The translations under genes were made by a program, and so were the position numbers. Positions 10,940-11,541 of a stretch of 19,784 bases of DNA are shown here, one piece after another. Source of the DNA: a virus (Duplodnaviria > Heunggongvirae > Uroviricota > Caudoviricetes); IMG/VR virus record IMGVR_UViG_2690316049_000007, positions 1 to 19,784 of that record; one strand, written 5' to 3'. Below the pieces are notes generated by a model that made no database searches, was not told where the DNA came from, and worked only from the letters and a program-made list of their open reading frames with translations. Every line of letters starts with the position of its first letter. The first letter of the stretch is position 1.

Positions 10940-11410
10940 ATGACAAAATCATGGAGCGTACCTTTTCCTGAATCAGAAACTGAACATGATGGAATGCCTG
11001 TTTTCTGGAGATTCCAGGCGACAGTTGAAGAAGATGGGATAAAAATATTCGCACTTCAATATATAGCTTTTCATCAGACAGAGCATTATGCATGGTTGGT
11101 TCCTGCGCATTGGATTGTTAATTTTAAACCAGCACCAAATCAGTGGTTACAGGAATGGAAACAAAGGAGAAATAGATATGCAATTAAGAAAGTAGCAAAA
11201 AATGCAGAAAGATCTTTTGCATTCCCAACGAAGAAACTTGCCATTGAAAGTTTATTGCGCCGGAAGAAATACCATTTAATGAGAATCAAACAAGATTTGG
11301 CTGTTGTATCAACTCTTGTTGATGGGATGAAGAATATTGATACATCAACACCAGATATTGAATATAACTTTGGGCACAACCAAGAAACAGAAAATTGGGT
11401 ATTTTATTAG
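10940..11410 (+). CDS. Hypothetical protein (156 aa), first gene after N; AT-rich 3' half
   Basis: ORF with GAGGTGAG RBS. No motif recognised. Lys-rich C-terminal half encoded by visibly AT-rich DNA. Followed by a 9-bp inverted repeat (11425-11452) and a terminator. Confidence 0.7.
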   Translation: MTKSWSVPFPESETEHDGMPVFWRFQATVEEDGIKIFALQYIAFHQTEHYAWLVPAHWIVNFKPAPNQWLQEWKQRRNRYAIKKVAKNAERSFAFPTKKLAIESLLRRKKYHLMRIKQDLAVVSTLVDGMKNIDTSTPDIEYNFGHNQETENWVFY

Positions 11411-11514
11411 TACGAGTAAGCACTGTGTATTCATTCCAACGAGTGAATACACGGAGCAATGTCGCTCGTAACTAAACAGGAGCCGACTTGTTCTGATTAT
11501 TGGAAATCTTCTTT

Positions 11515-11541
11515 GCCCTCCAGTGTGAGGGCGATTTTTTT
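11515..11541 (+). terminator. Rho-independent terminator (tL1-like) in the pL operon
   Basis: GCCCTC-CAGTGT-GAGGGC followed by GATTTTTTT. Confidence 0.6.

Follow-up and report, generated by a model that had tools for sequence, protein, structure and literature searches.

What is the gene that directly follows the antiterminator gene N in this lambdoid early operon, and did it arrive there together with the hairpin and the terminator that stand behind it? The question is raised by a 19,784-nt stretch of viral DNA (Caudoviricetes; IMG/VR record IMGVR_UViG_2690316049_000007, positions 1 to 19,784; hereafter the window), which represents the immunity and early part of a lambdoid phage or prophage and whose plus strand runs in the leftward, pL, direction. 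An initial annotation had described the 156-aa open reading frame (ORF) behind N, here called ORF156, as a gene with an ordinary 5' half and an AT-rich 3' half, bracketed by a hairpin and a terminator, belonging to no recognised family and representing a candidate moron. The ORF, a 9-bp inverted repeat and a terminator are indeed present where they had been placed. ORF156 is a true gene that encodes a protein and belongs to the accessory genes of the early-left (pL) operon of lambdoid phages, and the evidence set out below supports the view that it is compositionally foreign and horizontally exchanged. The hairpin and the terminator, on the other hand, belong to the backbone into which such genes are exchanged.

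The gene turns out to be a familiar one. Its protein (RefSeq WP_000167595.1) is 100% identical to L0079 of phage 933W and to the corresponding proteins of BP-4795, Min27, Stx2-phage-86 and PA28, and 99.4% identical to gp45 of HK97. It also matches PHROG 1636, a family of unknown function, over residues 1-156 of 156 (E = 2.7e-112), so that a family can be named where none had been recognised. ORF156 occurs in 562 of 5426 complete E. coli genomes (~10%), and in the E. coli urine isolate NZ_CP129240 the ORF and the stretch that follows it (602 bp) are 100% identical to the window, with the same order of genes from N to the recombinase downstream. Among 5.8 billion proteins searched, 33 matched, including ~20 full-length homologues of 55-99% identity from E. 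coli/Shigella, Cronobacter, Pectobacterium, Brenneria, Rosenbergiella and metagenomes. Conservation among 22 full-length homologues from Enterobacterales runs from end to end and peaks in the Lys/Arg-rich residues 79-130 (mean majority frequency 0.85, compared with 0.73 in the first half); between genera, nonsynonymous divergence (dN) is 0.2-0.3 and synonymous divergence (dS) is saturated. In the literature, no paper on the gene was found under any of its names: the accessions and PHROG 1636 gave no match, the listed matches to L0079 were unrelated, and the match to HK97 gp45 that was examined concerned a different protein. The gene is already catalogued yet functionally uncharacterised, and it belongs to a known class of swappable accessory genes of the pL operon.

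Base composition sets the gene apart as a unit. At 36.1% GC, against a window mean of 46.9% (standard deviation 3.0 over 471-nt windows; z ~-3.6), ORF156 is the lowest-GC 471-nt stretch of the window. Its 5' half has 38.9% GC and its 3' half 33.3%, and the GC content at third codon positions (GC3) is practically the same in both (0.28 in the first half and 0.27 in the second), below the 0.34-0.52 of the neighbouring genes (0.34 in orf322, 0.42-0.52 in all others). The difference between the halves thus sits in codon positions 1 and 2, where amino-acid composition (Lys, Asn, Ile) explains the extra AT; the Lys count, for example, is 4 in the first half and 9 in the second. Because both halves are low in GC and equal in GC3, the compositional break lies at the borders of the gene and there is none inside it, which contradicts the notion of an ordinary 5' half. 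A chimera joined in mid-gene was considered and rejected, given the equal GC3 of the halves and the fact that the supposedly odd half is the better conserved one. On the minus strand, a promoter-like site (11429->11401, TACACA-17-TAAAAT) overlaps the hairpin behind the gene and would yield an RNA antisense to the 3' end of ORF156; it was dismissed as chance level, with 2 sites found against 3.2 expected.

The elements behind the gene are another matter. The perfect 9-bp inverted repeat, GTGTATTCA/TGAATACAC at 11425-11433 and 11444-11452, extends as RNA to a 14-bp hairpin whose loop has 4 nt (dG -21.7 kcal/mol, z = -8.6), and of 200 shuffled sequences none gives an equally good fold. The window holds 17 inverted repeats of 9 bp, and only its extension to a long hairpin distinguishes this one. 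The terminator (dG -12.9 kcal/mol, z = -3.1) exactly matches lambda 33925-33950, and it is annotated as a terminator in the phage 21 record and as a 'putative terminator' after gp45 in HK97. The lambda element at ~33,930 is one that we take to be tL1, and the non-coding stretch of ~120 nt that runs from the end of the cassette through the terminator is accordingly called the tL1 module here. The module is virtually identical in lambda (33,925-34,045, between ral and ea10), phage 21, HK97, 933W and other prophages, and the genes on either side of it vary among lambda, HK97, 933W and other prophages. When 10940-11541 was searched in the 5426 E. coli genomes, 2237 gave a match: the 562 with ORF156, and the rest over ~11420-11540 only, which amounts to ~1700 genomes that carry the module without the gene. 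It is also found in 385 phage records, including those of phages 21, HK022 and SfI and of Salmonella phages. Since the module is near-identical in lambda and in many genomes that lack ORF156, its hairpin and terminator are shared backbone and not the gene's own. Both lie downstream of the gene, so that they do not bracket it either.

The module deserves some attention in its own right. It is better conserved than the adjoining genes and constitutes a mosaic junction, and its middle (11454-11506) is still ~83% identical in Salmonella P22-like phages. No Rfam family corresponds to the module. One possibility is that it is a processing site, another that it is a small RNA (sRNA) derived from a 3' untranslated region (3'-UTR); the prophage sRNA papers that were consulted do not mention it and place their RNAs elsewhere, with svsR in cI, the Pas sRNAs near lysis and structural genes, and the anti-sRNAs after pR'.

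The border on the other side of ORF156 is conserved as well. The junction at which the N stop codon meets the ribosome-binding site (RBS), TGAGGTGAnATATG, is the same in phage 21, where the ATG that follows opens orf28, which is followed by ral and then by the same module. Phage phi367 provides a second arrangement, in which the ORF follows ral and, compared with lambda, forms a clean insertion between GCACTG and TGTATTCA; a left junction of the N stop/RBS type recurs there after the 3' flank of ral, and of the DNA upstream only the RBS travels with the ORF. The conserved junctions on the left (the 3' end of N) and on the right (the module) thus confine the mobile unit to just the RBS and the ORF (10940-11419). 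As judged by these alignments, the cassette is shown to be an allelic alternative to orf28 plus ral, in a slot between a phage-21-type N 3' end and the tL1 module. The insertion in phi367 is flanked by a 7-bp direct repeat, AGCACTG (phi367 locus 3905-3930 and 4405-4420), which could reflect the microhomology of illegitimate recombination or a duplication.

Other genes fill the same slot elsewhere. In lambda, O157 LSU61, 23CRST032 and phage 21, the interval between N and the module is occupied by orf28 plus ral, by sieB, by a PHROG 3054 gene (149 aa) or by PHROG 24660 (44 aa) together with PHROG 10407 (62 aa), which suggests that it is a hotspot for accessory genes between conserved junctions. 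The earlier reading that ORF156 sits in a slot of exclusion or anti-restriction genes is borne out in that the position after N houses ral, and also sieB, in lambda and phage 21. The 149-aa PHROG 3054 gene, found in this slot of an O157 prophage, was compared with ORF156 and is not a homologue of it.

The N gene of the window is a hybrid, its arginine-rich first 33 residues matching the phi367-type N and residues 34-99 matching the N of phage 21. The last ~20 codons of this gene are the same DNA as the 'leader' upstream of gp45 in HK97, 933W, H-19B and PA28. In these four phages, a non-coding relic of 58-60 nt from the 3' end of a phage-21-type N lies between the phage's own N and gp45 (at 3443-3500 of the extracted locus in both HK97 and 933W). 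Such relics are apparent records of the route by which the cassette has travelled. Taken together, it is highly probable that the anatomy of the cassette as a whole, as collected in Table 1, is correct.

Table 1. Positions of the cassette, the module and neighbouring features in the window, with flanking hairpins of homologues in two other prophages (positions there refer to the extracted locus).
Feature	Position	Strand	Description and basis
ORF156	10940-11410	+	ATG to stop, 156 aa; starts 8 nt past the N stop codon
Left junction	10924..10939	+	N stop codon overlapping RBS (TTATTTGAGGTGAGAT), directly before ATG
Minimal mobile cassette	10940..11419	+	480 bp, 36% GC; start codon to 9 nt past stop
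tL1 module	11420..11541	+	conserved non-coding lambdoid module, ~120 nt, three hairpins; near-identity in lambda, HK97, 933W, others
Module hairpin HP1	11425-11452		the inverted repeat
Module hairpin HP2	~11453-11494		between HP1 and the terminator
Intrinsic terminator	11513..11541	+	TTGCCCTC-CAGTGT-GAGGGCGA + T7; hairpin 11513-11534, 8-bp stem, 6-nt loop
cro	9150-9335	-	
cI	9416-10066	+	
Terminator behind cI	10068-10081		
pL-like sigma-70 promoter	10158..10186	+	TTGACC-17-TAAATT; consensus scan; position relative to cI and N
Antiterminator N	10632..10931	+	99 aa; PHROG 271 (E = 6e-37), weak match to Pfam N_peptide; aligned with the N genes of phage 21 and others
gp17 homologue (P22/H-19B gene 17)	11554..11865	+	Pfam PF17420 'superinfection exclusion gene product 17', E = 1.5e-55; PHROG 1510
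TolA-like low-complexity ORF	11901-12869	+	322 aa, between gene 17 and cIII
Cronobacter prophage, hairpins flanking the homologue	4960-5000, 5475-5500		
Pectobacterium prophage, hairpins flanking the homologue	5950-5975, 6515-6545		downstream T-run short

Whether ORF156 is a moron depends on how the term is used. Morons have been described as extra DNA of deviant GC content that brings its own promoter and its own terminator and is expressed from the prophage (Juhala et al. 2000; PMC3594210). That ORF156 is extra DNA can be seen from the phi367 insertion relative to lambda and from the presence of orf28 plus ral at the same junctions in phage 21, and its GC content deviates clearly (36.1% versus 46.9%). 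No sigma-70-like site was found on the plus strand between pL and ORF156 by a scan beyond whose reach far-from-consensus promoters lie, and the 60 nt upstream of the gene are the coding 3' end of N. The sole promoter-like site ahead of ORF156 on this strand in the consensus scan is the one at 10158-10186, which is the putative pL by synteny with phage 21. The terminator, as described above, is that of the backbone module. With no promoter of its own found, ORF156 falls outside the strict definition of a moron; the proposal survives as far as extra DNA and deviant GC are concerned, and fails as to a promoter and a terminator of the gene's own. The AT-richness of an ORF and a terminator behind it do not suffice for calling a moron.

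The same observations bear on when the gene is expressed. No intrinsic terminator was found between pL and ORF156, and the first one downstream of pL is the terminator at 11513-11541, right after the gene; ORF156 should therefore be co-transcribed with N. Synthesis of its product probably accompanies that of N, at a point where the first terminator still lies ahead. ORF156 would thus be carried on the immediate-early pL transcript, ahead of any need for N-dependent antitermination, and it would be silent in a repressed prophage. Read-through of tL1 is allowed by N (PMC8065619). In the prophages of Cronobacter and Pectobacterium, a terminator-like hairpin stands on each side of the homologue, with only 10-30 nt between the upstream hairpin and the start codon. 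This leaves no room for a promoter, and expression of the homologue must depend on antitermination there.

Relatives of the gene are found in a range of settings. In Cronobacter and in two metagenomic lambdoid phages, the homologue has N on one side and cIII/kil on the other, and in Pectobacterium it adjoins xis. Another phage has it in first place behind a strong promoter, TTGACG-17-TATAGT, ahead of a gene for a ParB-like helix-turn-helix (HTH) protein. In non-lambdoid phages (Pantoea LIET2, a Vibrio phage, and matches in BFVD from Erwinia, Achromobacter, Delftia and Cellulophaga), it stands among small accessory genes.

The protein itself has a computed mass of 18.6 kDa and a computed isoelectric point (pI) of 9.1. 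It can be divided into an acidic, Trp-rich and aromatic N-terminal part that forms a beta-sheet, a very basic segment at 75-130 (pI 11.1) that includes a helix at 98-130, and an acidic conserved tail. No membrane segment was found in it (the best 19-residue Kyte-Doolittle mean is 0.56, far below the ~1.6 expected for a membrane segment), and the protein is predicted to be soluble. A profile search of 1.84 billion cluster representatives gave 87 matches, ~70 of which are remote relatives of 130-160 aa. These have in common the motifs YR...G...ET and K-x-I-x-K...SRFAF-x-TKEEA...RK..Q..HL, and all of them fall into PHROGs of unknown function. An earlier AlphaFold run on 22 close homologues was poor, with a predicted local distance difference test score (pLDDT) of 62, and a run on 63 diverse members of the family reached a pLDDT of 93.9 and a predicted template modelling score (pTM) of 0.81. 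The resulting model consists of a three-stranded antiparallel sheet (19-55), two short helices, a short strand, a 33-residue helix (98-130) and the conserved tail.

Comparison of the model and the sequence with known proteins yielded only further uncharacterised relatives. No solved structure matches the model, and its matches in BFVD are all uncharacterised proteins, from phages of Erwinia, Achromobacter, Sinorhizobium, Tenacibaculum, Delftia, Rhizobium and Cellulophaga. Scans of ORF156 against Pfam, NCBIfam and PADLOC returned noise only, Pfam scans of 63 remote family members returned no match, and sequence-profile searches of the PDB returned coiled-coil noise only. Neither an HTH nor any other known DNA-binding fold was detected in ORF156. 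A resemblance in motif had pointed to the three-stranded-sheet DNA-binding domain of the AP2 / Tn916-Int-like kind, a lead that was rejected at an hhalign probability of 0.5%. Only one acidic residue, E46, is nearly invariant across the superfamily; the ORF156 clade has Gln at this position, and catalysis therefore seems unlikely.

What might such a protein do for the phage? The reading that we prefer, with a probability of roughly 40%, is that ORF156 is a soluble, basic, early factor for counter-defence or host takeover. From its position in the early operon, its dispensability at the population level, its swapping with ral and its co-occurrence with ral in phi367, we infer an early non-enzymatic binding protein; the genes of its relatives lie in early operons too, which supports an early lytic role. 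The product would be a small, soluble, non-enzymatic protein whose basic segment (75-130) and beta-sheet domain probably bind a host macromolecule, be it nucleic acid or protein. Its time of action would be the opening minutes of infection or induction, when it would either neutralise a host defence or take over a host function. In position and timing, it would be an analogue of Ral with an unrelated fold, and because the folds are unrelated, the target is probably a different one. A more specific version holds that the gp45/L0079 family is a phage-restricted fold with no solved counterpart, and that its immediate-early product is a hitherto unrecognised inhibitor directed at one particular bacterial immune system or host factor. 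Present in ~10% of complete E. coli genomes, the Stx phages 933W and H-19B included, it would be exchanged with ral as an alternative counter-defence allele at the fixed N-tL1 hotspot; this version is tentative, and we consider it somewhat unlikely as worded.

Several points weigh against a role in counter-defence or host takeover. There is no experimental or homology link between ORF156 and defence or anti-defence, and the gene is without a match in Pfam, NCBIfam or PADLOC. In phi367 and phi296, both of which carry the gene, the anti-defence search of DefenseFinder is reported by the authors to have flagged only a methyltransferase, Ral and Gam (PMC12502783). The argument from the position of ral is guilt by association only, and the same slot also houses genes of other roles. 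Immediate-early expression is deduced from intrinsic terminators, and Rho-dependent termination could still act between pL and ORF156; far-from-consensus promoters may likewise escape the scan that was used.

An alternative possibility is that ORF156 serves the phage's own programme as a regulator. Its basic helix and its beta-sheet would then have phage DNA or RNA as their ligand, or else RNA polymerase or Nus factors, and the protein would adjust early transcription, the stability of mRNA or the choice between lysis and lysogeny in the manner of cIII or of N-associated functions. The strongly basic character of the conserved segment (pI 11.1) is in keeping with this, as are the gap of 8 nt to N, both here and in the ancestral phage-21-type context, the location of the gene amid cIII, kil and N in several lambdoid relatives, and its place as the first gene before a ParB-like HTH gene in another phage. 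A regulator of this kind is nevertheless unlikely. Lambda, phage 21 and ~1700 prophage-bearing E. coli genomes have the junctions without ORF156, so that the gene is dispensable at the level of the population; its position relative to N varies (after ral in phi367, beside xis in Pectobacterium); relatives occur in phages without lambdoid circuitry; and no HTH or known DNA-binding fold was detected in the protein, the AP2-like lead being unsupported (hhalign 0.5%). The basic character of the protein would also fit the binding of DNA in recombination, replication or repair, with ORF156 as an accessory of DNA metabolism that works with the erf, bet, gam and abc genes of the pL operon. The operons in question always hold recombination genes as well (RecT, Erf, Gam, Abc2, RecE). 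Against this, cIII and kil usually separate the gene from the recombination block, the gene is swapped regardless of the recombinase, which is Erf in the window and in HK97, Bet/Exo in 933W and RecT in PA28, and no similarity to known recombination mediators was found, all of which renders such a role very unlikely.

The least probable of the readings considered is that of a moron expressed from the prophage, which would protect the lysogen by superinfection exclusion or abortive infection (SieB, HK97 gp15-like) or serve the host through restriction alleviation. Its attractions are plain: the GC anomaly is clear, presence and absence among related phages look like insertion, the slot in lambda houses sieB and ral, a terminator stands behind the gene, and the neighbouring gene falls into the Pfam 'superinfection exclusion gp17' family. 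Expression in the lysogen is harder to account for, as there is no promoter-like site from pL to ORF156, the upstream 60 nt encode N, the terminators that precede the homologue by 10-30 nt in Cronobacter and Pectobacterium leave a promoter no space, and the terminator behind the gene is backbone. The lack of a membrane segment, unlike SieA, SieB and gp15, makes the SieB-type exclusion role that had been suggested for this slot unlikely, and there is no PADLOC match either. Homologues are also found among the small accessory genes of several non-lambdoid phages. Some of these phages are presumably virulent, and if so, protection of a lysogen makes little sense there. In comparison with these alternatives, counter-defence or host takeover is the reading that we retain.

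The surroundings of the cassette can be described briefly. The gp17 homologue is the first gene past the terminator, and is thus a neighbour of the cassette that lies outside it. The ORF of 322 aa behind gene 17 has a long low-complexity centre rich in Glu, Ala, Lys and Arg, matches PHROG 1376 and PHROG 21365 (both of unknown function) and bears the RefSeq name 'cell envelope biogenesis protein TolA', a name that probably reflects composition only. Further downstream follow cIII, kil and a recombinase of the Erf/Rad52 type. Upstream, the leader between pL and N (10190-10631) is unusually long (~440 nt) and GC-rich (55-59%) and contains no convincing ORF on the plus strand, nor was a nutL site located; phi367 shares only its ends (10185-10275 and 10527-10823).

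If the proposed function is correct, HK97, 933W, H-19B and E. coli prophages in their hundreds would share a factor for anti-defence or host takeover that is new in both kind and fold. In that case, the N-tL1 interval would constitute a defined hotspot for the swapping of such factors (ral, gp45, PHROG 3054, PHROG 10407 and others), and a simple rule for mining them would follow, namely to take any ORF between N and the conserved 120-nt module. In favour of ORF156 are its confident orphan fold and its wide distribution, which includes the Stx phages 933W and H-19B. In either case, the anatomy of the locus is corrected, in that the terminator and the hairpin are backbone and not part of the cassette. 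The initial annotation is thus confirmed in part as an observation, and its interpretation is supported in part.

Among known systems, the closest counterparts are HK97 gp45, 933W L0079 and the orthologues in BP-4795, Min27 and Stx2-phage-86, which have the same protein in the same position after N and before the same terminator module. The difference lies in the N gene, as ORF156 is 8 nt from a phage-21-type N in the window, while in HK97 and 933W a 58-nt relic of N separates gp45 from an N of the H-19B type. A link to exclusion of the SieB, SieA or gp15 type was not apparent, since PADLOC gave no match beyond noise and no family annotated for exclusion is among the PHROG and Pfam matches of ORF156. 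The morons of HK97 and HK022, such as gene 15 of HK97, resemble ORF156 in being extra DNA of deviant GC content that has spread horizontally among mosaic lambdoid genomes. Unlike them, ORF156 has neither a promoter nor a terminator of its own, and it resides in the early operon rather than in the repressed late operon. The backbone on its right is that of lambda, whose positions 33,925-34,045 are essentially identical to 11420-11541 of the window; the next gene is 17 in the window and ea10 in lambda. A further comparison is with ral (with orf28) of lambda and phage 21, which fills exactly this slot, with the end of N on one side and the tL1 module on the other. Like ORF156, it is a small, non-essential cassette and stands upstream of the first intrinsic terminator. 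Ral differs in that it is unrelated in sequence and family and has 66 aa compared with the 156 aa of ORF156, and its family is absent from the Pfam, PHROG and NCBIfam matches of ORF156. ORF156 and an annotated ral occur side by side in phi367, which indicates that the two genes are not redundant.

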